Positions 1 to 15,642 are shown, counted from the first letter of the stretch. The stretch: DNA of 64,000 nucleotides from an archaeon (GCA_038874115.1 JAVZDC010000001.1:138871-202870), one strand, 5' to 3'. Notes: generated by a model from the letters alone, not told the origin. Numbers and translations are program-made.

Positions 1-824
1 TCTGGTGGGTTTGCTCCAACAATATAAAACTTTGCATAATCAACTTCCTTTTTTATCAATGGAAATATCTTTTTAGCAAACCAAAGAACTGCGGAAATGT
101 TTGGTGCATAATCCATCCTTCCAAGAAATATTATTCTTCCTTTTTCTCTAATGATGTTTTCATACTTGGAATCGTTAAACTCTGCAAGATCAATCGCAGT
201 TGGGATAAGAGTACTCTTTCTTGAACCTATGTGCTTTTTATCCACGCTGGAAATAAAAATAAGTTCATCGAAAACTTCTGCTTGTTTTTTTTCATAAGCA
301 AACAACCTTGGATAATCAATAAAACAATAAATTTTCCAAAGAATATTTTTCTCTGCTTTCATCCTGCGGAATACATTAAGAGATAAAGAGTCTACATAAT
401 CCAAAACTTTTACTTTTGCGTCTACATATTTTGCATATTCAGCCATCCGCTCCAAACACACCCACAGCACATCAAACTTTTCTTTTCTATTCAATTCCTG
501 TAGCAATTTCACCATGCTTTCATGCTGGTAAAAATTAACTTGAAAAGGTAAAGAAGAAAACAAAAATTTTATTCCTAACTTGATTTGGTTTAAAGATAGG
601 GTAGATGTAACAACGCCTCTTCTTTCTTTTGGTAGTGGAGCCAGATAAACTTCTTTGCAAAATTTTTTCAGATTGTTAATGTGTTCTGGTTTTACTTCTC
701 CGTCATCGAAGGAAACAAAAGTTACATCATGGTCTTTAAGAGCTTCAAGTTGTTGATAAGTTCTTACTGCGTCCCCTCTTGCCCTGGAAGTCGGAAATCT
801 TGGGCACAGATAAAGTATTTTCAC
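1..824 (-). CDS. Glycosyltransferase family 1 (GT4-type), partial. The C-terminus runs off the window; the GTG start at 824 is preceded by GGTGAT.
   Basis: The minus-strand reading is open from 824 to 1 and translates to VKILYLCPRF...RGDAVRTYQQLEAL...GRMDYAPNISAVLWFAKKIFPL, a typical GT1 fold. An SD-like GGTGA sits 5 nt upstream of the GTG. It is not in the ORF track because it is truncated by the window edge. Confidence 0.6.
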   Translation of the reverse strand, partial: MKILYLCPRFPTSRARGDAVRTYQQLEALKDHDVTFVSFDDGEVKPEHINNLKKFCKEVYLAPLPKERRGVVTSTLSLNQIKLGIKFLFSSLPFQVNFYQHESMVKLLQELNRKEKFDVLWVCLERMAEYAKYVDAKVKVLDYVDSLSLNVFRRMKAEKNILWKIYCFIDYPRLFAYEKKQAEVFDELIFISSVDKKHIGSRKSTLIPTAIDLAEFNDSKYENIIREKGRIIFLGRMDYAPNISAVLWFAKKIFPLIKKEVDYAKFYIVGANPP

Positions 825-1018
825 GAAATCACCACAGGAAACATTAACCGAGACACCAGTAGATAATATGCCTAGTAAAAATATAAAGATATCTTGTATA
901 TTAAACACTTCACAAATTTTGGTTTTATAACTTACGCTTAATATAATAAAAATTAAAAGTTGATTGAAAAGTTCAAAAGATGAAAAAATATTTAAAGAAA
1001 AAGCACTATATATGAAGC

Positions 1019-1792
1019 ATGAAAGTAGTTATACTTGCTGGAGGATTCGGAAGCAGATTAAGTGAAGAAACAATTGTTAAACCAAAACCTTTGGTGGAAA
1101 TTGGAGATAAACCGATCTTATGGCACATAATGAAAATTTATTCCCATTATGGGTTTAACGATTTTATCATTTGTTTGGGGTATAAAGGACATATGATAAA
1201 AGAATGGTTCGCAAATTATTTCATTTACAATTCGGATTTGACAATAGATCTAAAAACAAATAAGATGGAAGTGCATGAAAATAATAATGAAGATTGGAAA
1301 GTCACATTAGTGGATACTGGACTATACACTCAAACAGGTGGCAGAATAAAAAGAATTCAAAAATATATCGGAAATCAAAGATTTATGATGACGTATGGAG
1401 ATGGAGTCGCAAATGTAGATATAAAAGCTTTAATAAAATATCATGAATCGCAGGGCAAGATTGCAACATTAACTGCTACCATTCCTGAAGGCAGGTTTGG
1501 AGCGCTACAAATATCTAAAGAAGGGGTTGTCAATTATTTCGGGGAAAAAAAAGATAATTTATCGAATTGGGTAAATGGTGGATTTTTCGTTCTCGAGCCG
1601 AAAATATTCGACTATATCAAAGACGATTCTTCAGTTTTCGAAAAAGATGTTTTGGAAAAATTAGTAGAAGAAAGACAACTCGTAGCGTATAAACATTCCG
1701 GTTTTTGGAAGCCGATGGATAAACTTAGCGACAAACTTAAATTGGAAGAATTATGGAATTCCGGAAACGCGCCTTGGAAAATTTGGCAGTAA
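1019..1792 (+). CDS. rfbF: Glucose-1-phosphate cytidylyltransferase (CDP-glucose pyrophosphorylase)
   Basis: The N-terminus MKVVILAGGFGSRLSEETIVKPKPLVEIGDKPILWHIMKIYSHYGFNDFIICLGYKG is nearly motif-identical to Salmonella RfbF/DdhA, and the 257 aa length fits. Confidence 0.9.
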   Translation: MKVVILAGGFGSRLSEETIVKPKPLVEIGDKPILWHIMKIYSHYGFNDFIICLGYKGHMIKEWFANYFIYNSDLTIDLKTNKMEVHENNNEDWKVTLVDTGLYTQTGGRIKRIQKYIGNQRFMMTYGDGVANVDIKALIKYHESQGKIATLTATIPEGRFGALQISKEGVVNYFGEKKDNLSNWVNGGFFVLEPKIFDYIKDDSSVFEKDVLEKLVEERQLVAYKHSGFWKPMDKLSDKLKLEELWNSGNAPWKIWQ

Positions 1793-1802
1793 GGGTTTTC
1801 GT

Positions 1803-2891
1803 ATGGAATGGGAAGAATTAAAAAATTTTTTTGCTAACAAAAAAGTATGTATAACAGGGCATACCGGATTTAAAGGAAGTTGGTTAACACAAATAATGAT
1901 CCTAGCTGGAGCTGATGTGGTTGGAATTTCGGTAGATCCTCCATCGCAACCAAATTTATTTCAGATTTTAAAATTGAAAGATAAAATAAAACATTATTAC
2001 GCGGATGTTACTGAATACAAGGATATCCAAGCAATCTTTTTGAAAGAAAAACCCGAAATTGTATTTCATCTTGCTGCTCAGCCAATAGTTTTTGAAAGTT
2101 ATAAGAATCCAAGAGATACATTCGAGATAAACACACTCGGAACAACTAACGTATTGGAAGCGATAAGAAATACAAGAAGTGTAAAGTGTGCCGTATTTAT
2201 CACAACGGATAAAGTATATAAAAACAATAATTGGATTTGGCCATATCGAGAAATAGATCAACTTGGTTCTGGGCTAGATCCATATAGCGTATCAAAAGCT
2301 GCGGCAGAGATGATTATAGAAACATATTCCAAAATATATTTTAATCCTGAAAAATACGGGGAAGAACATAACACTTTAATAGCCTCTGCGAGAGCTGGAA
2401 ACGTTGTAGGTGGGGGAGATTGGGCGCCATATCGATTAATAAATGATATAGTTAGAGCAATTTTTGAAAAAAAAGAATTGGTGATTCGAAATCCATATGG
2501 AATTAGACCCTGGAACTATGTTCTCGAAGTATTGGAAGGATACATGATGTTGGCAAAGCGCTTATATATGGGAGAAACCGCTATAGTTGGAGCATGGAAT
2601 TTCGCTCCAAATATTGAAGATCATATAACTGTAAAAGAAATTATTGAAATAGCAAAAACAGTGTTGAATACGGAGATTAAAATCGCTCTGGGAGAAAAAC
2701 AAATGAAGGAAGATTCCATCCTTTTACTGGATTCAACAAAAGCACGAAGAATTTTAGGATGGAAACCAAAATACTCTGCCTATGAGCGATTTACAAATAC
2801 TTTTGAATGGTACGGCAAATATTATTCTCACAAAGAAAATATGGAAGAGTATTCCAATAAAATGATATTGAACTTTTTTGGTGAAACTTAA
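1803..2891 (+). CDS. rfbG: CDP-glucose 4,6-dehydratase
   Basis: An SDR-type VCITGHTGFKGSWL Rossmann motif with collinear similarity to RfbG/DdhB (AAQPIVFESY, RAGNVVGGGDW, IRNPYGIRPW). It starts 11 nt after rfbF. Confidence 0.85.
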   Translation: MEWEELKNFFANKKVCITGHTGFKGSWLTQIMILAGADVVGISVDPPSQPNLFQILKLKDKIKHYYADVTEYKDIQAIFLKEKPEIVFHLAAQPIVFESYKNPRDTFEINTLGTTNVLEAIRNTRSVKCAVFITTDKVYKNNNWIWPYREIDQLGSGLDPYSVSKAAAEMIIETYSKIYFNPEKYGEEHNTLIASARAGNVVGGGDWAPYRLINDIVRAIFEKKELVIRNPYGIRPWNYVLEVLEGYMMLAKRLYMGETAIVGAWNFAPNIEDHITVKEIIEIAKTVLNTEIKIALGEKQMKEDSILLLDSTKARRILGWKPKYSAYERFTNTFEWYGKYYSHKENMEEYSNKMILNFFGET

Positions 2892-3356
2892 ATGTATGAG
2901 ATCGGAAACATTGAAGGTGTAATAATAAGCAGTAGAAAAACCATTTTAGATGATAGGGGATGTATACGACATTTTATGAAATGTACGGACCCTGAGTTTA
3001 AAAAATTTGGAGAAGTCTACTTCTCAGAAATATTTCCGGGGGTAGTTAAAGGTTGGCATCTTCATACAAAAATGGAGCTAAATTATGTTTGTATTAAGGG
3101 GAATATCAAACTTGTTTTATTGGATTTAAGAGAAAAGTCTCCAACTAAAAATAAGTTAATGGAGATCTATCTTGGGGAAAAAGATTATAAGCTAGTAAAA
3201 ATTCCTCCCGGAGTATTAAATGGATTTACTGCTATTGGAGAAGGTTCTGCAATTGTAGCAAATTTTACGGATATGCCTTACGACCCTGACGAAATTAAAC
3301 GCATCGATCCATGGGACAAATCAATAGGTTATAACTGGAAAGTGAAAGACCGATGA
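2892..3356 (+). CDS. RmlC-like cupin sugar-nucleotide 3,5(5)-epimerase
   Basis: RmlC core pattern: GWHLH, KLVLLDLREKSPTKNKLMEIYL and IPPGVLNGFTAI, comparable to RGLHyQ, DVAVDLR-SPTFG and IPpGfAHGF. Its start is adjacent to the rfbG stop. Confidence 0.65.
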   Translation: MYEIGNIEGVIISSRKTILDDRGCIRHFMKCTDPEFKKFGEVYFSEIFPGVVKGWHLHTKMELNYVCIKGNIKLVLLDLREKSPTKNKLMEIYLGEKDYKLVKIPPGVLNGFTAIGEGSAIVANFTDMPYDPDEIKRIDPWDKSIGYNWKVKDR

Positions 3357-4216
3357 AATTTGCAGTAGTCGGCTCGAATGGCCTTCTTGGAACACATCTA
3401 TATCTCAAACTAAAGGAGGTAAATGAGGAAGTTTTTGGCATAAGTAGAACCAAAAGTATTTTTACGAAGTATAACTGCGATGCTGCTTCTTTCGACGCCA
3501 TCGAAAAGATTATTTTAAAAGAGAAACCAGATATTGTAGTTAATTGTGCAAAATATAAAGGAAAGACAGATAATGCCGAAAAAGAAAGAAAAGAAGCGTA
3601 CATTTCCAACGTGGTGATTGTAAAAAATTTGGTAGCCATACAGAAAGAAATCCCTTTTAAATTGATACAAATATCAACTGATTGGATCTACTCCGGATTT
3701 GAGGAAGAAATATATACGGAAGAAAGTATTCCTTATCCTTTAAATTTTTATGGGTTATCTAAATTATTGGCTGAACAAGAAATAATATTTAAATCAAAAG
3801 ATTATCTCATATTGAGAACTACTGGATTATTTGGAGAAGAACATCCGCCAAAAAACTTTTATGCTAGGTTGAAATACTCTTTAGAAAAAAATGAAAAATT
3901 TTACGCTGCTTTTGACCAATATTCTCAACCAATTTCCGCATTAGAACTTTCTAAAATAATATACCAGCTATCAAAACAGAACGAGTGTGGACTTTTTAAC
4001 GCTACTGGCGGTGAATATCTGTCTAGATATGATTTTGCGAAAAAAATTGCAAGATTTCTAGGCTTGAATGAAGCACAAATAGAAAAAATATCATCAGATT
4101 TTAGAGAAATAAGAATACCTAAATATCTCAAAGTGGATAACTCTAAAATCGAAAAAAAACTGGGTAGAAAAATGAAAAATATCGATGAGATGCTTAAAGA
4201 ATTAAAGGTGACATAA
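3353..4216 (+). CDS. RmlD-like NAD(P)-dependent 4-ketoreductase (dTDP-4-dehydrorhamnose reductase family)
   Basis: MKFAVVGSNGLLGTHL Rossmann N-terminus, about 287 aa, typical of the RmlD substrate-binding family. It overlaps the epimerase stop by 4 nt. Confidence 0.6.
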   Translation: MKFAVVGSNGLLGTHLYLKLKEVNEEVFGISRTKSIFTKYNCDAASFDAIEKIILKEKPDIVVNCAKYKGKTDNAEKERKEAYISNVVIVKNLVAIQKEIPFKLIQISTDWIYSGFEEEIYTEESIPYPLNFYGLSKLLAEQEIIFKSKDYLILRTTGLFGEEHPPKNFYARLKYSLEKNEKFYAAFDQYSQPISALELSKIIYQLSKQNECGLFNATGGEYLSRYDFAKKIARFLGLNEAQIEKISSDFREIRIPKYLKVDNSKIEKKLGRKMKNIDEMLKELKVT

Positions 4217-4217
4217 C

Positions 4218-5552
4218 ATGAGAAATATAACATTAAAAAATAAAATGAAAAAACTTGTAAAAGAGTATTATAAAATTGAAGCTCAAAAAAATAAAAAAAG
4301 TGAATTTATATCAGTTACAGGCAAAAAATATGATGATAAAGAATTGTGGAATGGTATCGAAGCTATCTTGAAAGGGTGGTGGACTGAAGGGGAGTATAAT
4401 TTAGCTTTTGAAAACAAGTTAAAAGAATATGTGGGATGTAAATACGCTGTAACAACTAACTCAGGATCATCAGCCAATCTATTAGCTTTTATGTCTTTGA
4501 CTTCGAAAAAACTTGGAGAAAAAAGAATTCTTCCTGGAGATGAAGTAATCACAGTAGCTGCTTGCTTTCCAACCACGGTCTTTCCGATAATCCAAGCAGA
4601 AGCAGTTCCAGTGTTTGTAGATGTAGATCTTGAAACATATAATGCCAAAGTAGATGAGATAAAAAAAGCGATTTCACCAAAAACGAAAGCAATTTTAATG
4701 GCACATACTCTTGGAAACCCTTTTCAACTAGACGAAATTTTAAAGATAAAAGAAAAATATGATTTGTGGCTAATAGAAGATACATGCGATGCTTTGGGGT
4801 CTACTTATGCTGAAAAAAAAGTGGGTAGTTTTGGGGATTTGTCGACTTTCAGTTTTTATCCAGCACATCACATTACTACTATAGAAGGAGGGGCAATACT
4901 CACCAATAATTCTTTAATACACCGCATCGTCCGGTCTTTCAGAGACTGGGGTAGAGATTGCTGGTGCTCGACTGGAAAAAATGATACTTGCGGAAAAAGA
5001 TTTGGTTGGCAGTTAGGCAAGTTGCCATTTGGGTATGATCATAAATACATATATTCTGAGATTGGGTATAATTTAAAGATGACTGATATTCAAGCTGCGA
5101 TTGGATTGGCACAACTTGAGAAAATAGAAAAATTTTCTGCTATCAGGAAAAAAAATTTTAATTACTTAAAATCAAGAATGATTGAACTCGGACTGGATGA
5201 ATACTTTATACTGCCGAAACAAACTCCGAAAAGTGATCCATGTTGGTTTGGCTTTATACTCACCATAAAGGATAAATATGCAGATCTCATCAGAAGAAAC
5301 GAATTACAACAATATCTTTATAATAACAAAATAGATAGCAGAGTACTGTTCGCCGGAAATATAACAAAACAACCAGTTTTCATTGAAAATGAAATTAATT
5401 ACAAAGTGGTTGGGAATTTATCGAACACAGACAGAATAATGAAAAATTCCTTATGGGTCGGGATCCACCAAGGCCTTAATAAAAAGCATATGGAAAAAAT
5501 TGCAAAAAATATTGCTAATTTCATATATGATAAAATGAGGGGAATTAAATGA
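4218..5552 (+). CDS. rfbH: CDP-6-deoxy-D-xylo-4-hexulose 3-dehydrase (E1, PMP-dependent, [2Fe-2S])
   Basis: DegT/DnrJ fold carrying the E1-specific signatures. The active-site Lys is replaced by His (FSFYPAHHITTIEGG) and a Cys cluster with C-x1-C-x7-C spacing is present (RDWGRDCWCSTGKNDTCGKRF). Length is 444 aa. Confidence 0.8.
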   Translation: MRNITLKNKMKKLVKEYYKIEAQKNKKSEFISVTGKKYDDKELWNGIEAILKGWWTEGEYNLAFENKLKEYVGCKYAVTTNSGSSANLLAFMSLTSKKLGEKRILPGDEVITVAACFPTTVFPIIQAEAVPVFVDVDLETYNAKVDEIKKAISPKTKAILMAHTLGNPFQLDEILKIKEKYDLWLIEDTCDALGSTYAEKKVGSFGDLSTFSFYPAHHITTIEGGAILTNNSLIHRIVRSFRDWGRDCWCSTGKNDTCGKRFGWQLGKLPFGYDHKYIYSEIGYNLKMTDIQAAIGLAQLEKIEKFSAIRKKNFNYLKSRMIELGLDEYFILPKQTPKSDPCWFGFILTIKDKYADLIRRNELQQYLYNNKIDSRVLFAGNITKQPVFIENEINYKVVGNLSNTDRIMKNSLWVGIHQGLNKKHMEKIAKNIANFIYDKMRGIK

Positions 5553-6985
5553 AATTTATTGATCTTACGCAATATGCTTACAAACCTCCTAGCATCGAGG
5601 AACTTTGCGGAGAGATATTGGATAAAAGAGATGGTAGAAAAAAAGATTTGGCTGTAATCGTAGCCACAAGCGGATCGCAAGAAATACTTCATGAATTTTT
5701 AAACTTTGTTTCTAAACAATCATACAAAAAGTTTGATGTTATAATAATATACAATACTTTGGATCCGTTTTATAAGAAATTTGATAATAAGTTATCAATA
5801 CTTCACATCATTAGAAAAAAAAATCTAGGTTTTGGAGGAGCAGTTTATCTTGGACAAAAAATAGCAGTAAAAGAAAAATATAAATATATAACTTTTTTCG
5901 ATGTAGATCGGTTTGTTGTAAATCGAGATGCTTTTAAATTAATGATTGCCGAGTTGGAAAAAAACCCAAGGATTTCTGTTGTGATGGGGTTATGCGAATA
6001 TTCGAATAAAAAAGACTATAGATCAGTTGGTCCGTCTGTACTCGGCGGGATATTTAAAAGAGAATTTTTTGAAAATTATGGGTATTATTATCTTCCTTTT
6101 TACTTTGGTATGGAAGATAATGACTTTACGAGGAGGGTGTATTATTCAAAGGGGTATAAAATCTTGAATGAAGTATTGCTCACTCACCCATATCACACTT
6201 TTTTAAATACTCTTCTGTTCCTTTGGAAAAACTCAACAAAAAATATCTTTCCAACGCAAACAAAAATACTTTATACTTTGCCTGAAGTAGCAGGGGTGGC
6301 AAAATATGTGAGTTCCAAAGAGGTTTATGGTGTGGATTCTAGCTCTTGGAGAAAACTAAGGTTTGCAAGAGTAAGACATGCAATATACATATGGCTTCTT
6401 TTATTCAGATTCAATATAGTTTCTCGTCTAATTTTATCAGGTCTGGAAAAAACACTATCTGGTGTCTTACCCGGCCGTTTAAAATATCCAACTGTTATTA
6501 AGATGGGTAAAGATGTAAAACTTAAAATAAAGTTAGAAGAAATAAAGGACCCTCCTGTGTTTGATCAATTTTTCTATTCCGATAGTAAAGAAGTGAGAAA
6601 AATAATTGATGAGCTAAATATCAAATATAAAGAAAAAATTTCGATACCAGTAGACAAAGGGGCATTATCCAACATCAAACCAACAATAACGCTACTTACT
6701 TTTCCATATAAAGGAAAGGTGGCTTTTTATCATTCGACGATAGGATTATTCTGGAGATACTTCTTATTGAGATATATTCCGTTAGCTTTGCGATTAAAAG
6801 AATTTTATGTCATATACCCGGATGGAAAAGTATATAAAGTTTATCCATTTCGACAGGGGATAATCTCTTCGATACTTTGGAGTTTTTTAAAATCAACGTG
6901 GCAAACGTTCCAAGTAATTTATGCGTTTAGGCACATGCCGTCCACATATAAATATGGGTTGGAAACTACAAAACAAAAAGATTAG
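5549..6985 (+). CDS. Glycosyltransferase family 2 with an approximately 230 aa C-terminal extension
   Basis: GT-A motifs are present: LAVIVATSG, GFGGA, the DxD motif FFDVDRF and FYFGMEDNDF. It overlaps the rfbH stop by 4 nt. Confidence 0.6.
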   Translation: MKFIDLTQYAYKPPSIEELCGEILDKRDGRKKDLAVIVATSGSQEILHEFLNFVSKQSYKKFDVIIIYNTLDPFYKKFDNKLSILHIIRKKNLGFGGAVYLGQKIAVKEKYKYITFFDVDRFVVNRDAFKLMIAELEKNPRISVVMGLCEYSNKKDYRSVGPSVLGGIFKREFFENYGYYYLPFYFGMEDNDFTRRVYYSKGYKILNEVLLTHPYHTFLNTLLFLWKNSTKNIFPTQTKILYTLPEVAGVAKYVSSKEVYGVDSSSWRKLRFARVRHAIYIWLLLFRFNIVSRLILSGLEKTLSGVLPGRLKYPTVIKMGKDVKLKIKLEEIKDPPVFDQFFYSDSKEVRKIIDELNIKYKEKISIPVDKGALSNIKPTITLLTFPYKGKVAFYHSTIGLFWRYFLLRYIPLALRLKEFYVIYPDGKVYKVYPFRQGIISSILWSFLKSTWQTFQVIYAFRHMPSTYKYGLETTKQKD

Positions 6986-7063: not shown

Positions 7064-7294
7064 ATGAAAAAGCTAGGTAGAGTACTTTCTATTTCTAATG
7101 ATAATAAATTAATAGTCAAAACAGAACAGGTTGTAAAACTTGGAATGGAAGTATATGATGAAAAAAGAAGGCATGTTGGTACAATCATTGACTTTTTTGG
7201 GCCAGCGTATGGTCCATACGTTGTAGTTAGTGCGGAAAAAGAGAGTAATTTTTTGCTTGGAAAAGATCTTTTCGTAAAAGGAAAAAAAGATTGA
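7064..7294 (+). CDS. gar1: H/ACA ribonucleoprotein complex subunit Gar1
   Basis: The 76 aa product has GKDLFVKGKK and VYDEKRRHVGTIIDFFGPAYGPYVVV, matching the Gar1 beta-barrel signature. It sits immediately upstream of tfb, as in many archaea. Confidence 0.7.
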   Translation: MKKLGRVLSISNDNKLIVKTEQVVKLGMEVYDEKRRHVGTIIDFFGPAYGPYVVVSAEKESNFLLGKDLFVKGKKD

Positions 7295-7309
7295 AAAGGA
7301 GGATTTAAA

Positions 7310-8209
7310 ATGGCGTCTTGTGAATGTGGGGGAGAAATTATAGAAGACTTTGAGAGAGGGGTAAAATATTGCAAAAAATGCGGAAAAGTAATTGAGGAAG
7401 AATTGTTGGATAGAGGGGCAGAATGGAGAGCATATGATTGGTCTCAAAGGACTGAAAAAAGTAGAGCTGGAGCCCCAATAGATATTACAAGACCAAACAA
7501 AGGACTCCCTACTGAAATAGATCGGTTTAACAAAGATTGGAGAAGTGAGAAAATAACTTCTCCGGAAATGAAAAAAAGATTGACTAGCTTGAGAAAATGG
7601 AACAAAATGCTGCAGACATCGTCTTCGGTTGAAAGAAACTTGGCTATTGCGATGGGAGAATTAAGTAAAATTTGCGCTACTCTTGGATTGTCGAACAATA
7701 TAAAAGAAGCTGCTGCAATGCTTTACCGAAAAGCTGTTTCGAAAGGAGTTATCCGAGGAAGATTAATTGAAGCGGTAGTTGCAGCAATCGTGTACATGGT
7801 ATGTAGACAATATGGAATACCAAGAACTTTAGAAGAAATTGCGGAAAAAACAAACTTAAGTAAAAAGGATATTGGCAGAACATACAGATACTTGAAGAAA
7901 GATTTAGGAATAACAATGCCTTTAAGCAATCCAATTCACTACATTCCAAGATTTGCTTCTGAATTAAACTTATATGGAGAGGTCCAAGAAAGGGCGATTA
8001 AGATTTTAGAAGAAGCTATGAAGAAGAAATTAATATCTGGCCGGGGTCCGACTGGAATAGCAGCTGCAGCGATTTATATAGCAAGTGTTCAACTTGGAGA
8101 ACATAGGACTCAAAAAGAAGTTGCAGAAGTTGCGGGGGTCACAGAAGTTACAATCAGGAACAGGTATAGAGAATTAAAAGAACTTTTAAAGTTAGATTTG
8201 CCAAACTAA
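7310..8209 (+). CDS. tfb: Transcription initiation factor IIB (TFB)
   Basis: N-terminal Zn ribbon (CECGG...CKKCG) followed by two cyclin-like repeats; 299 aa. Confidence 0.9.
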   Translation: MASCECGGEIIEDFERGVKYCKKCGKVIEEELLDRGAEWRAYDWSQRTEKSRAGAPIDITRPNKGLPTEIDRFNKDWRSEKITSPEMKKRLTSLRKWNKMLQTSSSVERNLAIAMGELSKICATLGLSNNIKEAAAMLYRKAVSKGVIRGRLIEAVVAAIVYMVCRQYGIPRTLEEIAEKTNLSKKDIGRTYRYLKKDLGITMPLSNPIHYIPRFASELNLYGEVQERAIKILEEAMKKKLISGRGPTGIAAAAIYIASVQLGEHRTQKEVAEVAGVTEVTIRNRYRELKELLKLDLPN

Positions 8210-8210
8210 T

Positions 8211-8229
8211 TTTTTAGTATATTTTTTAC
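8211..8229 (+). terminator. Oligo-T tracts downstream of tfb (archaeal intrinsic terminator-like)
   Basis: tttttagtatattttttac directly follows the tfb stop codon. Confidence 0.3.
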
Positions 8230-8351
8230 TCCCTGCCAAATCAACTAATAAAAATTAATTACTCATCTATAAAGATAAACGAGTAAAGCGGTATTAATCG
8301 GAAAAAATATTTTTGTTACTTGCAAATGTTGAATAATCTTGTTTAAATCAT

Positions 8352-8720
8352 TCAACGACATTCCACTCTAACCGTGGGGAAAACTTCAGAAGATAAATAA
8401 TATTCTCCTGGCTCCAAATCCGGAATGTAAAAACTTTTTAATTCCCCCAGGTTTAGACTCATATTAAAGGACCAATACTTTTTTTGGGACGCAAAATAAG
8501 CAGTAGTATTTATCGGAGCATCTCCACTGTTTCTTAAGAAAATTAATTTGGTTTTTGCATCACAATTAACTACTTGGACTACTGTTGTTTTAACGAATTG
8601 AGCTTGGTGAGAAATAAAAAATAGAGCAACAATTCCGACAATAATAAGTAAAGAAAGCCCTCCAGCTAAAAAAGCTATTTTTTTAATTAAAATAGATTCC
8701 ATAGCTTTAATAAAATACAA
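8352..8720 (-). CDS. Small membrane-anchored protein, hypothetical
   Basis: Single N-terminal TM helix (IAFLAGGLSLLIIVGIVALFFI). It is divergent from the surface protein gene at 8754..10673. Confidence 0.4.
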   Translation of the reverse strand: MYFIKAMESILIKKIAFLAGGLSLLIIVGIVALFFISHQAQFVKTTVVQVVNCDAKTKLIFLRNSGDAPINTTAYFASQKKYWSFNMSLNLGELKSFYIPDLEPGEYYLSSEVFPTVRVECR

Positions 8721-8753
8721 AGATTTTTATTTATTTGCATTTAAAAAAATAAT

Positions 8754-10673
8754 ATGCTTTGGAAAACAACTGCGCTCTCGTTGATCATCTTTTTAATATT
8801 TTGTTTACCTGTTTTTTGTTTAAACGTAGATTTAGAAATGAACCCTGTGAATGGGTCAGCACCGTTGCACGTATATTTGAATGCAGTTATTTCTGAAAAC
8901 CAATCTACTCCTGAAATAATTTGGAATATCGAGGATGAGTCCGGGCATGGGATCAGTATTATTGATCAAGATAAAATAGACAATATTTTCCGGGCAGGAA
9001 CGTATAAAATAAATTTGACTGTTGCAGACTCAACTACAAGAAAAAGTGTGACTAAAATCCTAAAAGTTTTTGAGTCCCAAACAGATGCCATGATTGAAAC
9101 AGACTGTAATTTCCCCCAAGACCCTTATAACTATGTCAACATTTATGCAAAAGTAGCAGAATCCGAAGGAAAAAGTTGCTCTGGAGAATTAACCGCAACC
9201 ATCGATGACATGCTTAATGTTAGTTTTAACAAATATTCTGGTTGCTATTTTTCCAAATACATAATACTTCCTGGAGGATTACATAGGGTAACTTTTCAAT
9301 ATAAACATCCAATAGAAACAAAATTTGCGACTTGCATTTTCAAAGTTCCATACCAAACAAATGTGGATATAAAGATATCTGAGCCAAGAGAAAATAAAAC
9401 GTATGCTGTAAATTCTTTGATTTTTGTTGAAGTTACAGGGTTCGTAAATGGTCGAATAGCAAAAGATGGAAAGATTACCGTATATTATGAAAATGAGAGC
9501 GTTGAATTAAACAATTTTAGAGGAGTTTTTAAAGGTTTTATTAAATTTAGAAACACTGGTCTTCAGAACCTTACCTTTGAGTTTAAGTACGGTCTCCTTG
9601 AAACAAAAAAAGAAATAAAGGTAAATATAAGTGAGACTTCGGAAGATGTGGCTGGAGCTAGAATTAAAACATATTTCCCAGCAAATATAAACACGAATGT
9701 ATCTGAATCATTGAGAGTACAAGTTTATAATTGGAAGGGTCTTTTGGAAGAAAATGCAAGAGTGAAGGCTGAAGTTTATTATGATTCCCAAGTCGTAGAT
9801 ACTTTTGACCTGCCGTTGACTGGAGTATTCTATACAAAAGTTTATAGCTTTAAGCACGCCGGAATATTTACATTAAGAATTACTGCAGAGTTTGAAAATA
9901 ATACATTGGTCGATAAAAAAGAAGTAAAGGTTGGAACGCCTGTTGAAATCTCGAAAGTTGAAAATTTTACAATTATAATTTTAAACCCTCAAGAAAACGA
10001 GACCTATTCAACAGAAGCTAATATAAAAGCTATCGCAAAGATTCTTTTAAATAATTCGCCTATTTCGGCAGCAAACGTGCTATTTAAAGTAGATGATGAA
10101 ATATTGAATTCTACTTACGAAGGGTTTGGAGAATATTCTGCTATTTTGCCCATTCTTCCAGAAGGAATACATTCATTAAGTGTGTTCGCAACATACGGTT
10201 CGGACTTTGTAGCGAATAAAAGCATCGATTTTTCGACAAGTGAGCACCGAGTAATAATAAAAGCAACAAATCCGGGAGAAAATGATGAAGTATTTACTGA
10301 GAAAGGAGGGAAAATTGAACTTATAGCAACTGTTGTTGATGAAACTAATGATATTGCGGTAAATGCTTTGGTACTTGGAGAATTAATTAGCCCAAACGGG
10401 ATGAAAACAAACATTCAATTTTCAATGGATCAAAACTCTGGAAGATATATAGGAATATTTTATCCTTTAGAAACAGGAATTTATCAATTAAAAATCACTG
10501 CTAAAAAGCAAGGTCATGTATCAGATTCGGTTTCTTTAAGATTTAAAATCACAGTTAAAGAAGAAAAAATTTCGTTGCTTGGCTTTTTAACAACTGAAAA
10601 TTTAGTCTTGATTGCGATAGTTTTAGGTATAATTGCGCTTTTATTAATCATATTTAAATTTTTGTTACATTGA
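8754..10673 (+). CDS. Cell-surface protein with Ig-like/beta-sandwich repeats, an N-terminal signal and a C-terminal TM anchor
   Basis: The N-terminus is hydrophobic and the C-terminus LVLIAIVLGIIALLLIIFKFLLH is a TM anchor. NxS/T sequons are frequent; 639 aa. Confidence 0.55.
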   Translation: MLWKTTALSLIIFLIFCLPVFCLNVDLEMNPVNGSAPLHVYLNAVISENQSTPEIIWNIEDESGHGISIIDQDKIDNIFRAGTYKINLTVADSTTRKSVTKILKVFESQTDAMIETDCNFPQDPYNYVNIYAKVAESEGKSCSGELTATIDDMLNVSFNKYSGCYFSKYIILPGGLHRVTFQYKHPIETKFATCIFKVPYQTNVDIKISEPRENKTYAVNSLIFVEVTGFVNGRIAKDGKITVYYENESVELNNFRGVFKGFIKFRNTGLQNLTFEFKYGLLETKKEIKVNISETSEDVAGARIKTYFPANINTNVSESLRVQVYNWKGLLEENARVKAEVYYDSQVVDTFDLPLTGVFYTKVYSFKHAGIFTLRITAEFENNTLVDKKEVKVGTPVEISKVENFTIIILNPQENETYSTEANIKAIAKILLNNSPISAANVLFKVDDEILNSTYEGFGEYSAILPILPEGIHSLSVFATYGSDFVANKSIDFSTSEHRVIIKATNPGENDEVFTEKGGKIELIATVVDETNDIAVNALVLGELISPNGMKTNIQFSMDQNSGRYIGIFYPLETGIYQLKITAKKQGHVSDSVSLRFKITVKEEKISLLGFLTTENLVLIAIVLGIIALLLIIFKFLLH

Positions 10674-10682
10674 AGGGATTGA

Positions 10683-11828
10683 ATGAAACTATTCGTAGAA
10701 AAATTGGTTGAAAATAAAAACGAGTTTGAACTTGTGGAAAGAAAAGGTCTTGGCCATCCAGACACAATATGCGACTCTATTTGTGAAAGTATATCCATCT
10801 CCCTTTGCAAAGAGTATTTGGAGAAATTTGGATTTATTGCTCATCATAACATCGATAAAGGTCTTCTTGCAGCAGGAGAGTCAAGAGTAAGGTTTGGAGG
10901 CGGAGAAGTTACAAAACCCATGAAAATGATAGTAGGAGACAGGGCAACACGAGAATGGAACGGTATTGAAATAGATCTAGATAAAATAATTTATGAAACT
11001 ACGAGAAAATGGTTTTTAGAGAATTTAAGATTTGTAAAACAAGAACATTTTGAAATAGAAAATGTATTAAAGCCAACTTCGCCAGAACTTGCAAGGATTT
11101 TTAAAGAAAAAGATGTTCCTGGCTCAAACGATACTTCTGCAGCTTTCGGATATTATCCTTTGTCTGAACTTGAAAAAATAGTTCTTGATACTGAATTGTA
11201 CTTAAATTCAAAGGATTATAAAAAAAGTTTTCCAGAAACCGGGGAAGACATAAAGATAATGGGGATCAGGAAAAAAAAGGAGGTTGAGCTCACGATAGCA
11301 ATGAGTTTTATAGATTCTTTAATAGAATCAGAAGAAGACTATTTTAGAAAAAAAGAAGAAGTTTTAGAAGATTTAAAAGATAAAACCGGAATTAAAGGTA
11401 TTACGTTGAACAATCTAGATAAAAAGGGCTTTGGGCTTGAAGGAATTTATTTAACTGTGACAGGAACTTCAGCAGAGAGTGGGGATTCTGGCCAAGTTGG
11501 AAGAGGAAACAGAGTAAATGGAGTTATTTCTTTTTACAGACCATTCAGTAGTGAAGCTGCGGCTGGAAAAAATCCTGTAGCACATATAGGTAAAATTTAT
11601 AATGTTTTAAGTCATGTATTGGCTAAAGAGATTTATGAAAAAACAGGGGAGAAAACGTACATTTGGATTGTAAACAAAATTGGAAATCCGATAGACGATC
11701 CACTTATATTAATTCGTCTAAAAGATGTTACTCGTTCGAAAGAAGTAGAGGAAATAATAAACAAATATTTTTCAAACTTGCGTAAATTTTGCTTAGATCT
11801 TGCTAAAGGAAAATATAAAATATGCTGA
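10683..11828 (+). CDS. metK: Archaeal-type S-adenosylmethionine synthetase
   Basis: ERKGLGHPDTICDSI matches the archaeal MAT motif (ERKGxGHPDSICD); 381 aa. Confidence 0.8.
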   Translation: MKLFVEKLVENKNEFELVERKGLGHPDTICDSICESISISLCKEYLEKFGFIAHHNIDKGLLAAGESRVRFGGGEVTKPMKMIVGDRATREWNGIEIDLDKIIYETTRKWFLENLRFVKQEHFEIENVLKPTSPELARIFKEKDVPGSNDTSAAFGYYPLSELEKIVLDTELYLNSKDYKKSFPETGEDIKIMGIRKKKEVELTIAMSFIDSLIESEEDYFRKKEEVLEDLKDKTGIKGITLNNLDKKGFGLEGIYLTVTGTSAESGDSGQVGRGNRVNGVISFYRPFSSEAAAGKNPVAHIGKIYNVLSHVLAKEIYEKTGEKTYIWIVNKIGNPIDDPLILIRLKDVTRSKEVEEIINKYFSNLRKFCLDLAKGKYKIC

Positions 11829-11855
11829 ATTAATTTTATAATGAAAGGTGATCTT

Positions 11856-12251
11856 ATGGCAGATGAATTAAAAACTGTTCCAAATCAACCAGTGGAACCT
11901 GAGGAGGAAGTTGGGGAAAAAGAAGCAGAATCGTTAGTTTTCCCAAATGCAGTGATTGTAAGAGAATTAAGAAAACACATATCAAAAGAAAAATTAATAA
12001 AAAAAGAGGTTAAGATAGCTGTGAACAAATTTTTGGCTGAAATTTTGGCACAGATTGCAAAAGAGATGGATAAATTCCCTTACGCAACAATAGATTACAG
12101 AATGTTTGAAGAATCTATAAAACCATTCAAGCAAGCAAAAGAAATCAAACTTGAAAAAACAAGATTAATAAAACATTTAGACGCGATCATCGAAGACTGC
12201 AACTCAATTAAAAGAGATTTAGAGGAAAAATTTAAAGAGAGTTTAGAATAA
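11856..12251 (+). CDS. Histone-fold domain protein with N- and C-terminal extensions
   Basis: FPNAVIVRELRK...LAEILAQIAKEM...YATIDYRMFEESI aligns with HMfB-type LPIAPIGRIIK...LAKILEEMGRDIA...RKTIKAEDIELA. The start is moved to the ATG at 11856 because a strong SD (AGGTGATC) precedes it; the track ORF begins at 11841. Confidence 0.4.
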   Translation: MADELKTVPNQPVEPEEEVGEKEAESLVFPNAVIVRELRKHISKEKLIKKEVKIAVNKFLAEILAQIAKEMDKFPYATIDYRMFEESIKPFKQAKEIKLEKTRLIKHLDAIIEDCNSIKRDLEEKFKESLE

Positions 12252-12716
12252 TTAAACCAATAAATTTTCCATTTCCATCTTTATTATTTCTCCTGTTTCT
12301 GCATTTATTTTTACAACCACGATTTTAAAATCGCTTGTTATAAAAATAAAATGCCAGATTGGCTTCCCAAGTTCTGCATTTAAAGTTACAAGCAAACTTA
12401 CTTCTTTTTTCCCAATTTTTTTAAATTCTTTAGCCGCTTTTTCTAACATATTCTCTGGGTTTGTTTTTATGAGTTTTTCATCCAAAGAGAACTCGGACAT
12501 CTTGATTGGTTTTTCTGGTTGAGATAGACTATTTAATCGATAATCGAACTGAATAACTAAATTCTTTTCTTGGTTAGCGTACACTAGAATCCAATCATTT
12601 AACCCTTTTGTCCGATCTCGAATGCAATATGCTAAATTAAGATGATATCCAGATTCTAAAATTTGCTCTACTTCTTTATTTTTTTTAGCAAGACTTAAAA
12701 CTTCTTTAAAATGCAT
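12252..12716 (-). CDS. Hypothetical protein
   Basis: 154 aa ORF convergent with the histone-fold gene; the two stop codons abut (TAATTA). Confidence 0.4.
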   Translation of the reverse strand: MHFKEVLSLAKKNKEVEQILESGYHLNLAYCIRDRTKGLNDWILVYANQEKNLVIQFDYRLNSLSQPEKPIKMSEFSLDEKLIKTNPENMLEKAAKEFKKIGKKEVSLLVTLNAELGKPIWHFIFITSDFKIVVVKINAETGEIIKMEMENLLV

Positions 12717-12747
12717 AATTTTTTAAATAACATTAAAACTATTTAAA

Positions 12748-14535
12748 ATGATGAGTTCTCAGAGCCAAGTAAAAATTTTAGATCTTACTAAATATTTGAA
12801 AGGATTGCCAAATGAAAAAAAGACGATAAGCTACATGTTAATAACTGGAATAGTATTCTTTGCAGCAATTATTTCAATTCAAAATAGTTTTCTAAGTGCA
12901 GGTCTTACTACTTTGATTTATATTTGGATGCCTACGATATTCTCTGCATTGTTTATGGTTCCAATAAGTAAGCTTTTAAGAACTCCGATAAACAGAAACC
13001 AGGCTTTTTATCTTTCGTTTGTGTGTATGGCACTAACAGCTACTTTATTGTTATCAGGACTCTACATACAAAAATTCGTTGGGCTAAATTCCATAAATTT
13101 CTTTATTTTTGGGCTTTCGATCACTTTTATTTTTCAAGTTTTAGTATTTTGGTTAATATTTTCATACAGAATAACAAAAAGTTGCCTTATGGCGAGTATT
13201 TATCCTATATTTTGCTTAATCTCAATTGAACTTGGTAGTTTTCTAACAATTTTCCAAACTTTCCCTCCAGAAATCGTTTTTGCTAAATTTCTGATATCTT
13301 TAAGTATCTTTTTAATTGGGATTTGTATTTTCCTTATACTACTTGATGCTCCTGCAAAAGCTAATTTTGGGGTTAGTGCTTGGAGACTTGGGCAAAGTTT
13401 ATTGTCTGAAATACTTTCAGGTAAAAGCGACGTAGAGAAAAAACTTTTAAAACTTGCGGAAAAAACAGATGTCCTTGTTGGCTTGTTAAATTTTAAAACT
13501 AAGAAAAAGAATGAAATATTACTTGTAACTCCGTATATCCATCTTGGGCCTTTTGGTAGTTTAGGTGGAGCAAAATTCTCTGAATTTTTAATTAAAACTA
13601 TTGAACAAAATCCAAATAAAAAAGTAATTATAACGCATGGGACAGCAACACATGATTTAAACCCGATTGGAGAAAAAACCATAGAAAAAATAATTTCTGA
13701 AATTAAAAAAGAATCTGAAAAAATGGAGTATTATGAAACCGCATCTATGCCTGTTTTTTTAAAAATGAACGACTGCCAATTTTTAGCTCAGAAATTTGGC
13801 GACACAATTTTCTCCATATCTTCTTTTGCTCCTAAACCTACTGAAGACATTGACTTTGCGATAGGATTAGCAATGATTGCTCATCTTGGAAAAGCGATAC
13901 ATAGCGATGCTCATAATTCTTGTAGGCCTGGGCATCACACAATATTTTCCGGAGATTTAAGACAATATGAGTTAATAGATGGGGCAAAAAAATTGTCTAC
14001 TTTAATAGGAGACGCGAAATATAAATTGAAAGTTGGATTCTCAAAAGATGATTTTAAAGGATATTCTGAAAGGCATGGGATAGGGAAAGGAGGTTTAAGA
14101 ATATTGGTAACAGAAGTCAACAAAATTAGAACAGCTTATATAGTATTAGACGGAAATAATTTAATTCCAGGTTTAAGAGAAAAAATAATAAAAGAAGCGA
14201 AAAAATATGTTGAATATGCTGAAGTAATGACTTCTGATTCGCATGCAGTAAACACTGGAGATATTGGATATAATCCAATTGGTTTAAAAATACCTGAAAA
14301 GGAAATAATTAATCGGGTGATTAATACTTTGAAAGAAGCTATTAAAAACTTGGATGATTCAGAAATTGGAACAAAAATTATCAAGATAAAAGGAATTCCT
14401 GTTTTTGGCCCACACAAAGCTAGTGAACTAGTCTCAACTATAAATTCCACTGTTGCTTTTTTAAAGATAACAACACCTATCCTAACATGTTTAACGATGG
14501 CGCTTGCTCTTCTAAGTATTTTCGCATTGGGTTAG
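12748..14535 (+). CDS. Polytopic membrane protein with a large His-rich C-terminal domain (DUF2070-like architecture)
   Basis: About 6 N-terminal TM helices plus a roughly 350 aa soluble domain with HGTATHDLNP, SDAHNS and TSDSHAVNT motifs, and a final TM helix. Confidence 0.4.
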   Translation: MMSSQSQVKILDLTKYLKGLPNEKKTISYMLITGIVFFAAIISIQNSFLSAGLTTLIYIWMPTIFSALFMVPISKLLRTPINRNQAFYLSFVCMALTATLLLSGLYIQKFVGLNSINFFIFGLSITFIFQVLVFWLIFSYRITKSCLMASIYPIFCLISIELGSFLTIFQTFPPEIVFAKFLISLSIFLIGICIFLILLDAPAKANFGVSAWRLGQSLLSEILSGKSDVEKKLLKLAEKTDVLVGLLNFKTKKKNEILLVTPYIHLGPFGSLGGAKFSEFLIKTIEQNPNKKVIITHGTATHDLNPIGEKTIEKIISEIKKESEKMEYYETASMPVFLKMNDCQFLAQKFGDTIFSISSFAPKPTEDIDFAIGLAMIAHLGKAIHSDAHNSCRPGHHTIFSGDLRQYELIDGAKKLSTLIGDAKYKLKVGFSKDDFKGYSERHGIGKGGLRILVTEVNKIRTAYIVLDGNNLIPGLREKIIKEAKKYVEYAEVMTSDSHAVNTGDIGYNPIGLKIPEKEIINRVINTLKEAIKNLDDSEIGTKIIKIKGIPVFGPHKASELVSTINSTVAFLKITTPILTCLTMALALLSIFALG

Positions 14536-14538
14536 TGT

Positions 14539-15642
14539 ATGAACATGAAAATCGGGTGGTTTACTGAAACATACTATCCTCAAATGAATGGGGTGGTAAG
14601 CTCCATTCAGAAAACTGGTGCGGAACTTGTAAAAAGAGGGTATGAAATCCACTTGTTTTGCCCAAAAACAAGCGTAAAAAATAGTATTTTTAAAATACAT
14701 GAAGCTTTTTCATTTACTTTCCCACCTTATCCTGAATTTAAAGTTGGTATACCGCTAAAAATGGATTGCCCAAAGATGGATCTTGTGCACACTCACGGAC
14801 CTTTCTTTATGGGAAGGTATGGAGTTAAAATCGCAAAGAAACAAAAAATTCCAAAAATAAGTACTTTTCACACTCTCTTATCAGACTACGTTGAATACAT
14901 TACTCCGATTGGAAAAAGATTTGCAAGATTTTTAACTTGGAAATATTGCGAAATGCATTATTCTAAATACGATAAATTAATTGTACCAAGTAAAGCATTG
15001 GAAAAAGTTCTTGGGGAAAGAGTTAAACGGCCTATCTCCGTTGTCCCTACAGGAGTAGATTTATCCTTTTTTAAACCTGTGGAAAATGCGCGAGAAAAAC
15101 TTGGCTTGCCTGAGGATAAAAAAATATTTTTATCGGTTGGACGATTAAGTTATGAAAAAAATATCGACGTTCTAATTAAAGCGATGGAAAAAATAGATGA
15201 CGGTTTGCTTTTGATAGGGGGAAGAGGGCCTGCTGAAAATTATTTGAAAGAATGCATAAATAAATGTAATGTTTCAGAAAAAGTTAAACTTTTAGGTTTT
15301 ATAGATCAGAAAGATTTGCCTGCATATTATTCTGCAGCAGATTTTTTCTTAATTGCTTCTTTAAGTGAGACTCAAGCAATTGTTGTTTTAGAAGCCATGG
15401 CTTGCGGAACTCCAGTCATAGGTGTAAATTATCTTGCCATCCCTGAATTTATTCAAAATGGAGTAAATGGATTTATATTTAACCCGAACTCTGTAGAAGA
15501 TCTTGCGGATAAAATGAATGAAAAATGTACTCCAACAATGCGAAGAAAAGCTTTAGAAACTGCGCAAAATTACTCGATAGAAAAATGTACGGACATTTTA
15601 GAAAAAATATATGAAGAATTGGTTAACGCAAAAACTACTTGA
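14539..15642 (+). CDS. Glycosyltransferase family 1
   Basis: GT4 pattern: KIGWFTETYYPQMNGV...E(X7)E-like C-terminal half. Confidence 0.7.
   Translation: MNMKIGWFTETYYPQMNGVVSSIQKTGAELVKRGYEIHLFCPKTSVKNSIFKIHEAFSFTFPPYPEFKVGIPLKMDCPKMDLVHTHGPFFMGRYGVKIAKKQKIPKISTFHTLLSDYVEYITPIGKRFARFLTWKYCEMHYSKYDKLIVPSKALEKVLGERVKRPISVVPTGVDLSFFKPVENAREKLGLPEDKKIFLSVGRLSYEKNIDVLIKAMEKIDDGLLLIGGRGPAENYLKECINKCNVSEKVKLLGFIDQKDLPAYYSAADFFLIASLSETQAIVVLEAMACGTPVIGVNYLAIPEFIQNGVNGFIFNPNSVEDLADKMNEKCTPTMRRKALETAQNYSIEKCTDILEKIYEELVNAKTT

Follow-up and report, generated by a model that had tools for sequence, protein, structure and literature searches.

Described 3,6-dideoxyhexose systems and the archaeal locus

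The usual view of 3,6-dideoxyhexoses is that they are rare sugars characteristic of Salmonella and Yersinia. CDP-4-keto-6-deoxyglucose also feeds pathways without E1, in which WbcA/WbcB make 6-deoxy-D-gulose and AltA/AltB (L-altrose branch) make 6-deoxy-L-altrose. In the ddhABC(D)/rfbFGH(I) clusters of Yersinia pseudotuberculosis and Salmonella enterica, the core pathway uses RfbF/DdhA, RfbG/DdhB and RfbH/DdhC (E1), the last with His at the position of the PLP-binding Lys and a C-X57-C-X-C-X7-C motif whose four Cys are the [2Fe-2S] cluster ligands (PMC8987622, Agnihotri 2004 cited there); tailoring is by Prt, Abe or Tyv SDR enzymes, and a glycosyltransferase gene comes after the sugar genes. 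The asc cluster of Y. pseudotuberculosis O:5a (AscA-F) joins an epimerase and a 4-reductase to the ddh core, giving an L-series 3,6-dideoxyhexose, and includes the E3 gene ascD. SpnQ, the TDP-4-keto-2,6-dideoxyglucose 3-dehydrase of the spinosyn forosamine pathway, is an E1 homologue with the [2Fe-2S] motif that has no dedicated E3 in its actinomycete natural-product cluster and works with general ferredoxin or flavodoxin reductase pairs, whereas ColD has no [2Fe-2S] cluster and ColD-type enzymes deoxygenate C3 without Fe-S or reductase (PMC8987622). In a survey of 12,939 genomes the pathway was called only where an E3 homologue was present, and most rare sugars were reported to be missing from Archaea (PMC7725333).

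Compared with the Yersinia and Salmonella systems, the window (the whole 64-kb stretch of DNA analyzed here) encodes the same three core enzymes at equivalog level, the same E1 signatures and likewise a glycosyltransferase after the sugar genes, but it differs in its archaeal host, in the absence of DdhD/E3, in identities of only 39-58% to the Yersinia enzymes, and in tailoring by a cupin and an RmlD-like reductase. Coordinates and family searches agree with the preliminary description of five contiguous co-directional genes for RfbF, RfbG, a cupin, a reductase and RfbH: five plus-strand ORFs lie tightly packed within positions 1019-5552, exactly where they had been placed, with gaps of 10, 0, -4 and 1 nt between successive ORFs from RfbF to RfbH. 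The operon has a sixth gene (5549-6985, plus strand) for a GT2-family glycosyltransferase of 478 aa (Pfam Glycos_transf_2, 36 bits across residues 36-162), the presumed transferase of the sugar product; its start overlaps the RfbH stop by 4 nt and the two are translationally coupled. We lean modestly towards reading these six genes as a DPANN operon for E3-independent CDP-deoxyhexose synthesis in which the GT2 enzyme would transfer the product to a surface glycan.

RfbF (glucose-1-phosphate cytidylyltransferase, 257 aa; 1019-1792, plus strand) scored 413 bits against the NCBIfam equivalog TIGR02623 (cut-off 300) and carries the nucleotide-binding motif GGFGSRL at residues 8-14. RfbG (CDP-glucose 4,6-dehydratase of the SDR family, 362 aa; 1803-2891, plus strand) scored 418 bits against the equivalog TIGR02622 (cut-off 278), with intact SDR motifs (GHTGFKG at residues 19-25, YSVSK at 161-165). 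Equivalog-level RfbF and RfbG adjoining an E1 place the locus in the CDP-glucose branch, in which RfbF would form CDP-glucose and RfbG would convert it to CDP-4-keto-6-deoxy-D-glucose.

RfbH is an E1-type enzyme

RfbH (444 aa; 4218-5552, plus strand) scored 636 bits against NF011936 (cut-off 423) and 320 bits against PF01041. It matched Yersinia E1 (PDB 3BCX) at E = 7e-147 and 493 bits, versus 1.5e-58 and 202 bits for ColD, and its catalytic region aligns to 3BCX gap-free with a constant offset of +3. H217, within YPAHH at residues 214-218, corresponds to His220 of 3BCX and replaces the PLP-binding Lys; the H220K mutant entry 3BB8 differs from 3BCX at precisely this position. C190, C248, C250 and C258 correspond to C193, C251, C253 and C261 of 3BCX and form a C190-X57-C248-X-C250-X7-C258 motif, with three Cys in CWCSTGKNDTC (248-258) and the fourth in DTCDALG (188-194). 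Both hallmarks first noticed in this protein, His for the PLP Lys and the C-x1-C-x7-C motif, are thus confirmed by alignment to 3BCX. H217 and the four Cys are also invariant among 27 archaeal and CPR relatives. On these residues RfbH is a PMP- and [2Fe-2S]-dependent CDP-4-keto-6-deoxyglucose 3-dehydrase of the E1 type, with predicted C3 deoxygenation activity.

RfbH might instead work without a reductant, by ColD-like hydrolysis with glutamate-driven PMP regeneration, or be a nonfunctional relic. ColD offers a precedent for catalysis without Fe-S or reductase, and no partner reductase is visible. Against this, the four Cys of the cluster, which ColD lacks, are invariant among those relatives, and RfbH is far closer to E1 than to ColD by score; the occurrence of identical copies in four MAGs, and identities of 55-68% between phyla, point to selection. 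We therefore consider a reductant-free or defunct RfbH very unlikely.

Absence of E3 and the likely electron donor

No E3/DdhD match was found in the window or in L001-L005 (5.8 kb upstream) with a jackhmmer profile seeded with Yersinia DdhD, a search that covered ∼70 kb of the MAG genome, and no FNR motif occurs in the window, in keeping with the earlier statement that no E3 partner lies there. The one window ORF with a ferredoxin-type Cys pattern encodes a secreted beta-helix protein. A missing E3 is not, however, a distinguishing feature of this cluster, because 61 of 80 sampled species rfbH loci have no E3 nearby (19 of 80 do) and SpnQ-like enzymes have already been described. Among the 60 sampled loci that have ≥5 kb of flanking sequence in each direction, 44 likewise had no E3, and no E3-type gene was present at any of five other archaeal and six CPR rfbH loci. 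No alternative redox gene was enriched close to rfbH among the E3-less loci.

The cluster could still operate as in Yersinia and Salmonella if a DdhD-type reductase were encoded elsewhere in the genome: the sequence read comprises the window (64 kb) and a further 5.8 kb upstream, and 54 of 73 bacterial rfbH loci have no adjacent E3, which may mean that partners are often unlinked. Where E3 does occur among the sampled loci, however, it is always <10 kb from rfbH, usually directly upstream of rfbF, and it was found within 10 kb at none of 12 archaeal or CPR loci. The hosts, moreover, belong to DPANN, CPR and methanogen lineages, in which plant-type Fer2-FNR fusion reductases are, to our knowledge, uncommon. 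We judge a distant classical E3 improbable.

In the arrangement that we find most likely, RfbH would deoxygenate C3 as an E1-type enzyme and draw on a general ferredoxin. SpnQ, with which RfbH is compared on the published description (PMC8987622), is the precedent, although its substrate is of the dTDP-2,6-dideoxy type and RfbH is an equivalog in a CDP context. To remove the 3-OH, RfbH would use PMP together with His217 and a [2Fe-2S] cluster coordinated by C190, C248, C250 and C258, with two electrons supplied by a general low-potential donor such as housekeeping ferredoxin, and no dedicated E3 (DdhD). Extended to DPANN, Methanococcales and CPR, this becomes a shared E3-independent 3,6-dideoxyhexose route in which housekeeping ferredoxin would reduce the E1 cluster directly, and which would be completed here by a Tyr-less, noncanonical cupin epimerase and an RmlD-like reductase; we put this forward tentatively, at somewhat below even confidence.

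Intact E1-type clusters lacking E3 are thus found in the DPANN archaeon of the window, in two methanogens available in culture and in most of the bacterial loci sampled. Should they be active, the distribution of these sugars is wider than has been assumed, and E1 can dispense with E3, the partner that textbooks assign to it. An E3-independent archaeal route, if real, would provide the first archaeal 3,6-dideoxyhexose, and genome surveys that require E3 would have greatly underestimated the spread of these sugars. In agreement with the preliminary description, no characterized archaeal 3,6-dideoxyhexose was found in the searchable literature.

Cupin, reductase and the sugar product

The third gene (2892-3356, plus strand) encodes an RmlC-fold cupin of 154 aa from an uncharacterized subfamily, presumed to be a CDP-4-keto sugar epimerase. 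Its match to the RmlC model TIGR01221 (40 bits, cut-off 156) is at family level only. RmlC uses a His base, a Tyr acid and a Lys (PMC9095892); the cupin has His56, but in the alignment with Mycobacterium tuberculosis RmlC the Tyr is replaced by N124 and the Lys by N64, and both Asn are invariant within the subfamily of the cupin. Canonical RmlC identity was therefore rejected on the score below the equivalog cut-off and the replacement of both residues: of the "RmlC-like epimerase" described earlier, the fold and family stand. WbcA (5BUV), the CDP-4-keto-6-deoxyglucose epimerase of Y. enterocolitica O:8, is only 21% identical to the cupin and keeps the full RmlC active-site set (PMC9095892), in contrast to the cupin, where Asn replaces both Tyr and Lys. 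The "dTDP sugar isomerase" 3EJK of Desulfovibrio desulfuricans G20, a structural genomics entry, has Lys where the cupin has His56; as 3EJK is uncharacterized, it carries no functional information for the cupin.

The fourth gene (3353-4216, plus strand) encodes an NAD(P)H-dependent reductase of 287 aa, presumed to be a C4 ketoreductase. It matched Pfam RmlD_sub_bind with 171 bits and the RmlD equivalog TIGR01214 with 161 bits (cut-off 224), at family level only, has an intact fold and intact SDR motifs (GSNGLLG at residues 7-13, STD at 108-110, YGLSK at 133-137), and found its best PDB match in 2GGS. It is an RmlD-like enzyme whose substrate is probably CDP-linked.

In the proposed pathway the cupin would epimerize the 4-keto intermediate, at C5 because this is the sole stereocenter adjoining the keto group after C3 deoxygenation, and the reductase would reduce C4. 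The resulting CDP-3,6-dideoxyhexose would probably have L configuration, like ascarylose or colitose, and the GT2 enzyme would transfer its sugar to a surface glycan. The likeness to AscE/AscF drawn at the outset holds for gene-set logic, that is by gene types only, and is otherwise weak: asc has its E3, none being near here, and the ascarylose analogy is unproven because the cupin lacks the RmlC Tyr and Lys and cupin-reductase pairs occur in methanogen cassettes without RfbH.

Those cassettes allow a different division of labor, with cupin and reductase making a CDP-6-deoxyhexose from CDP-4-keto-6-deoxyglucose, in the manner of WbcA/WbcB and AltA/AltB, while RfbH either feeds a separate D-series 3,6-dideoxyhexose via the same reductase or contributes little. 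The nearest relatives of the cupin are methanogen proteins from cassettes with a reductase and without RfbH, the pair occurring in this way in Methanomicrobiales, so the pair may act on a 3-hydroxy intermediate in a 6-deoxyhexose branch. The nearest characterized structural neighbors of the cupin, moreover, are C3 epimerases (WbcA, GDP-heptose 3-epimerase), an activity that would have no target in a 3-deoxy sugar, C3 being already deoxygenated. RfbH nonetheless lies inside the operon, coupled to GT2, with every catalytic residue kept; RfbH and this cupin subfamily occur together in at least four other lineages; and the operon has just one transferase gene. We regard such a branched scheme as unlikely, if the most serious competitor to a single route through RfbH.

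Recurrence, genomic context and origin

Most of what was read from the window is correct but amounts to routine annotation of a cluster already annotated and recurring in other archaea: an identical protein has been named RfbH by NCBI in four MAGs, and E3-less RfbH clusters also occur in Methanococcus aeolicus, Methanocaldococcus villosus, Woesearchaeota, Nanoarchaeia, Micrarchaeota and CPR bacteria. A member of the Patescibacteria (L036) has all five gene types in identical order; RfbF, RfbG and RfbH accompany the cupin subfamily in Nanoarchaeia (L010) and a bacterial MAG (L019), and in another Patescibacteria locus (L012) a distance of 6.6 kb separates the cupin from RfbH. A GT2 gene also stands 3' of the sugar genes in M. 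aeolicus, M. villosus, Woesearchaeota and Methanomicrobiales cassettes.

The preliminary description suggested acquisition from bacteria and called RfbF and RfbG almost motif-identical to enterobacterial proteins, which is overstated at identities to Yersinia of 58% (RfbF) and 39% (RfbG). Recent transfer from enterobacteria-like bacteria has in its favor that the first descriptions of the pathway came from bacteria, that all three enzymes retain recognizable identity to those of Yersinia (51.5% for RfbH), and that the RfbH clade is shared with CPR bacteria, whose presence there implies inter-domain exchange at some time. The nearest homologues of all three are nevertheless archaeal (identity to Methanococcales: RfbF, 67-69%; RfbG, 55-56%; RfbH, 58%), as are those of the cupin, and each falls in an archaeal or archaeal plus CPR clade in neighbor-joining (NJ) trees, which were built without bootstrap support and with some archaeal sequences picked because they were top matches. 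In GC, GC3 and codon usage the operon departs by no more than about 1.4 SD from the 58 other genes of the window, with GC flat at about 0.33. Native codon usage and the grouping of the enzymes with archaeal homologues give no support to recent bacterial acquisition; given also the recurrence of the genes in several archaeal groups, which largely bears out the commonness across archaeal lineages that the preliminary description had named as refuting its view, we consider it scarcely credible.

The flanks are archaeal as well. Genes for TFB, Gar1, an archaeal AdoMet synthetase and Topo VI-B, all core genes, adjoin the cluster, and the thermosome is closest to DPANN/Micrarchaeota, by which the host is a DPANN-type archaeon. 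Divergent from the operon lies the 3' part of a GT1-family glycosyltransferase gene (3-908, minus strand) whose start is beyond the window edge; this fragment gives only a weak Glyco_trans_1_4 match, and the full gene in L001-L005 encodes 402-430 aa (Pfam Glycos_transf_1), with a second GT1 gene next to it. The 110-nt AT-rich divergent intergenic region (909-1018) presumably holds the operon promoter, and an A-rich stretch with TATTTAAA was read by eye ∼30 nt upstream of the RfbF ATG, in a genome of 33% GC.

A six-gene operon encoding an E1-type enzyme

Five open reading frames of 257, 362, 154, 287 and 444 aa lie on the + strand at 1019-5552, spaced by 10, 0, -4 and 1 nt, the coordinates being those of the preliminary description of this DNA. 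A sixth open reading frame on the same strand, at 5549-6985, encodes a GT2 glycosyltransferase of 478 aa and has a 4-nt overlap with the RfbH stop codon; the cluster is therefore a six-gene operon. On the upstream side, an AT-rich gap of 110 nt separates the operon from the end of a divergently oriented GT1 gene, next to which longer public contigs carry a second GT1 gene. Under the curated equivalog cut-offs of NCBIfam, the glucose-1-phosphate cytidylyltransferase RfbF (413 bits, cut-off 300), the CDP-glucose 4,6-dehydratase RfbG (418 bits, cut-off 278) and RfbH (636 bits, cut-off 423) all scored above threshold. The cupin, at 40 bits (RmlC cut-off 156), and the RmlD-like reductase, at 161 bits (RmlD cut-off 224), were assigned at family level only; the reductase retained its GxxGxxG and S/T-Y-K motifs. 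The original gene calls were thus right, and the E1 hallmarks reported with them were borne out by comparison with structures. The 444-aa RfbH matched the crystallised E1 of Yersinia pseudotuberculosis (3BCX) at E = 7e-147, and ColD, which is without an iron-sulfur cluster (PMC8987622), at only 1.5e-58. In the alignment to 3BCX, offset by a constant +3 across the catalytic region, RfbH His217 fell on E1 His220 (exactly the residue at which the H220K mutant entry 3BB8 differs), and C190, C248, C250 and C258 fell on C193, C251, C253 and C261 (spacing X57, X1, X7). When 27 relatives from archaea and CPR were aligned, neither His217 nor any of the four cysteines varied.

Origin and distribution of the cluster

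Neighbor-joining trees without support values, for which some archaeal sequences had been picked because they were top hits, grouped RfbF and RfbG each with sequences from Methanococcales and Nanoarchaeia, and RfbH with Woesearchaeota in a ten-member archaeal and CPR clade. Identity was higher to Methanococcales than to Yersinia for RfbF (67-69% versus 58%), RfbG (55-56% versus 39%) and RfbH (58% versus 51.5%). GC content was flat at ∼0.33 over the whole window, and GC, GC3 and codon usage of the six operon genes lay at most ∼1.4 SD from the window's other genes, which rules out a compositional island. Thus, while gene calls and E1 signatures of the preliminary description stood, its proposal of a horizontal transfer from bacteria is not supported, and these sequence comparisons argue against a recent one. 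Given the archaeal grouping and native composition, the resemblance to the enzymes of enterobacteria is therefore a sign of strong conservation within the families; an exchange between archaea and CPR bacteria in the distant past is likely.

The identical RfbH protein is deposited at NCBI as 'MAG: lipopolysaccharide biosynthesis protein RfbH [archaeon]' and occurs on contigs of four assemblies, one of them a 350-kb contig of GCA_038882915.1. The cluster, annotated before, adds one more member to an enzyme system already known. It is flanked by genes for TFB, Gar1, an archaeal-type AdoMet synthetase and Topo VI-B, and the nearest proteins to the thermosome (57707-59353) come from DPANN, Micrarchaeota and Diapherotrites. 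The host is a DPANN-type archaeon and, with a best thermosome match of only 71% identity, has no close sequenced relative beyond the four near-identical MAGs.

An RfbH cluster is not unusual in an archaeon. Relatives at 54-60% identity were found in the cultured Methanococcus aeolicus Nankai-3 and Methanocaldococcus villosus, as well as in Woesearchaeota, Micrarchaeota, Nanoarchaeia, Promethearchaeota and many CPR bacteria. The clusters of M. aeolicus (7240-13358 of fetched locus L006) and M. villosus (7244-13340 of L007) share the order RfbF-SDR (298-299 aa)-RfbG-RfbH-SDR (341-345 aa)-GT2, with no E3 partner reductase found in either; this layout is reminiscent of ddh-prt/abe-tyv clusters in Salmonella and Yersinia. 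Both species are convenient for testing whether archaea make 3,6-dideoxyhexoses. The cluster of a Woesearchaeota MAG (GCA_038871545.1; 5547-14067 of L008) reads RfbF-RfbG-SDR-split transketolase (N and C halves)-RfbH-GT2, which looks like a pathway to a branched-chain dideoxy sugar of the yersiniose kind, here in a DPANN archaeon. A methyltransferase gene and a radical SAM/SPASM gene were also observed after GT2 in this locus.

Absence of an E3 partner

As previously reported, no E3 was found in the window, whether by Fer2 and FNR motifs, single-sequence phmmer or a jackhmmer profile; the only matches to the cysteine pattern were secreted Cys-rich proteins, and no ferredoxin-like gene was seen in the window. 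A genuine DdhD (329 aa, 2Fe-2S ferredoxin plus FNR module), recovered directly upstream of ddhA in two Yersinia loci, was used to build an E3 profile that was run over all fetched loci, with no E3 detected across the window and the 5.8 kb preceding it. Among the matches listed, E3-type genes occurred in 19 of 80 species loci (a sample, not a census) and, among the 60 loci flanked by 5 kb or more on each side, in 16; they were present in 19 of 73 bacterial loci, and in none of the five other archaeal and six CPR loci. SpnQ, an E1-type enzyme with a [2Fe-2S] motif and no dedicated E3, is served by general ferredoxin or flavodoxin reductase pairs (PMC8987622). With this precedent, and with E3-less loci common, the absence of E3 is real but neither rare nor mechanistically unprecedented, and does not distinguish this cluster.

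The most economical reading would be that RfbH is reduced by a housekeeping low-potential donor; alternatively, an E3 gene could lie elsewhere in the genome, beyond the window and the 5.8 kb upstream. When all neighbors within 7 kb of rfbH were clustered across 85 loci, no gene family was both common and specific to E3-less loci, and no redox-partner candidate emerged; what was confined to E3-less loci was a methyltransferase family and further rare families. One frequent family of ∼600 aa was rejected as a redox partner because it is a TPP enzyme (Pfam TPP_enzyme_N/M/C). Its presence within 7 kb of rfbH in 31 of the 85 loci, about one-third of those sampled (e.g., 4799-6619 of L011), suggests that the E1 product is commonly converted to branched-chain derivatives. 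The sole Fe-S-type gene seen near the cluster, outside the window and 4.6 kb upstream of RfbF (1486-2148 of L001, a longer public contig), encodes a 220-aa protein with HTH_5 and weak 4Fe-4S ferredoxin motifs, and probably serves in regulation, not as an electron donor.

The searchable literature yielded no account of an archaeal 3,6-dideoxyhexose. One survey, covering 303 archaeal and 12,636 bacterial genomes, classed tyvelose, paratose and abequose as rare sugars, mostly of Salmonella and Yersinia, and reported that Archaea lack most rare sugars (PMC7725333). According to its supplement, an E3 homologue at ≥50% identity was required (PMC7725333), and E3-less clusters would therefore have been missed. 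The occurrence of intact E3-less E1 clusters in archaea, CPR and most sampled bacteria is of some general value, and the point is testable in cultured M. aeolicus.

Cupin and predicted sugar product

In HMMER alignments to RmlC structures, the catalytic Tyr is matched by cupin N124 and the Lys by N64; both positions are invariant Asn across the cupin subfamily, which keeps a W-H-x-H motif instead. These substitutions, together with the score below cut-off, rule out a canonical RmlC. In RmlC-type enzymes a His base and a Tyr acid act (PMC9095892). Residue 130 is Tyr in the window protein (2892-3356) and His in at least 90% of the subfamily; in either form it could be the missing general acid.

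The nearest cupin relatives (57-64% identity, ∼149 aa) are from Methanomicrobiales, where three fetched cassettes (6230-10361 of L091, 6230-10422 of L092, and L090) encode a CDP-like nucleotidyltransferase, a dehydratase, the 149-aa cupin and an RmlD-like reductase, followed by GT2. In these cassettes the nucleotidyltransferase and the dehydratase fall short of the CDP equivalog cut-offs (232 versus 300 bits; 189 versus 278), and RfbH is absent from all three, so cupin and reductase form a module that also occurs apart from E1. For the window, a 6-deoxyhexose branch like that of WbcA or AltA/AltB (PMC5399914) is a serious alternative. On the other side, three other lineages combine RfbF, RfbG and RfbH with a cupin of this subfamily: one Patescibacteria locus (L036) has exactly the gene order of the window, and a Nanoarchaeia locus (L010) and a bacterial MAG (L019) have variants of the gene set. 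In a second Patescibacteria locus (L012), 6.6 kb separate the cupin and RfbH. This recurrence supports a functional link of the cupin with the three enzymes. Since C5 is the sole epimerisable center beside the keto group after C3 deoxygenation, an L-series 3,6-dideoxyhexose is the simplest prediction for the product; the more specific parallel drawn earlier with AscE/AscF of ascarylose synthesis is unproven.

A second glycosylation patch at 12748-16840 comprises a DUF2070 membrane protein (12748-14535) and two GT4 glycosyltransferases (14539-15642, + strand; 15635-16840, - strand), which are convergent with overlapping 3' ends. Large proteins with N-terminal hydrophobic signals are encoded at 8754-10673 (639 aa, no Pfam match), 22328-23881 (517 aa, a right-handed beta-helix) and 32694-35102 (802 aa, - strand), and it is possible that these are surface proteins and targets of the glycan.
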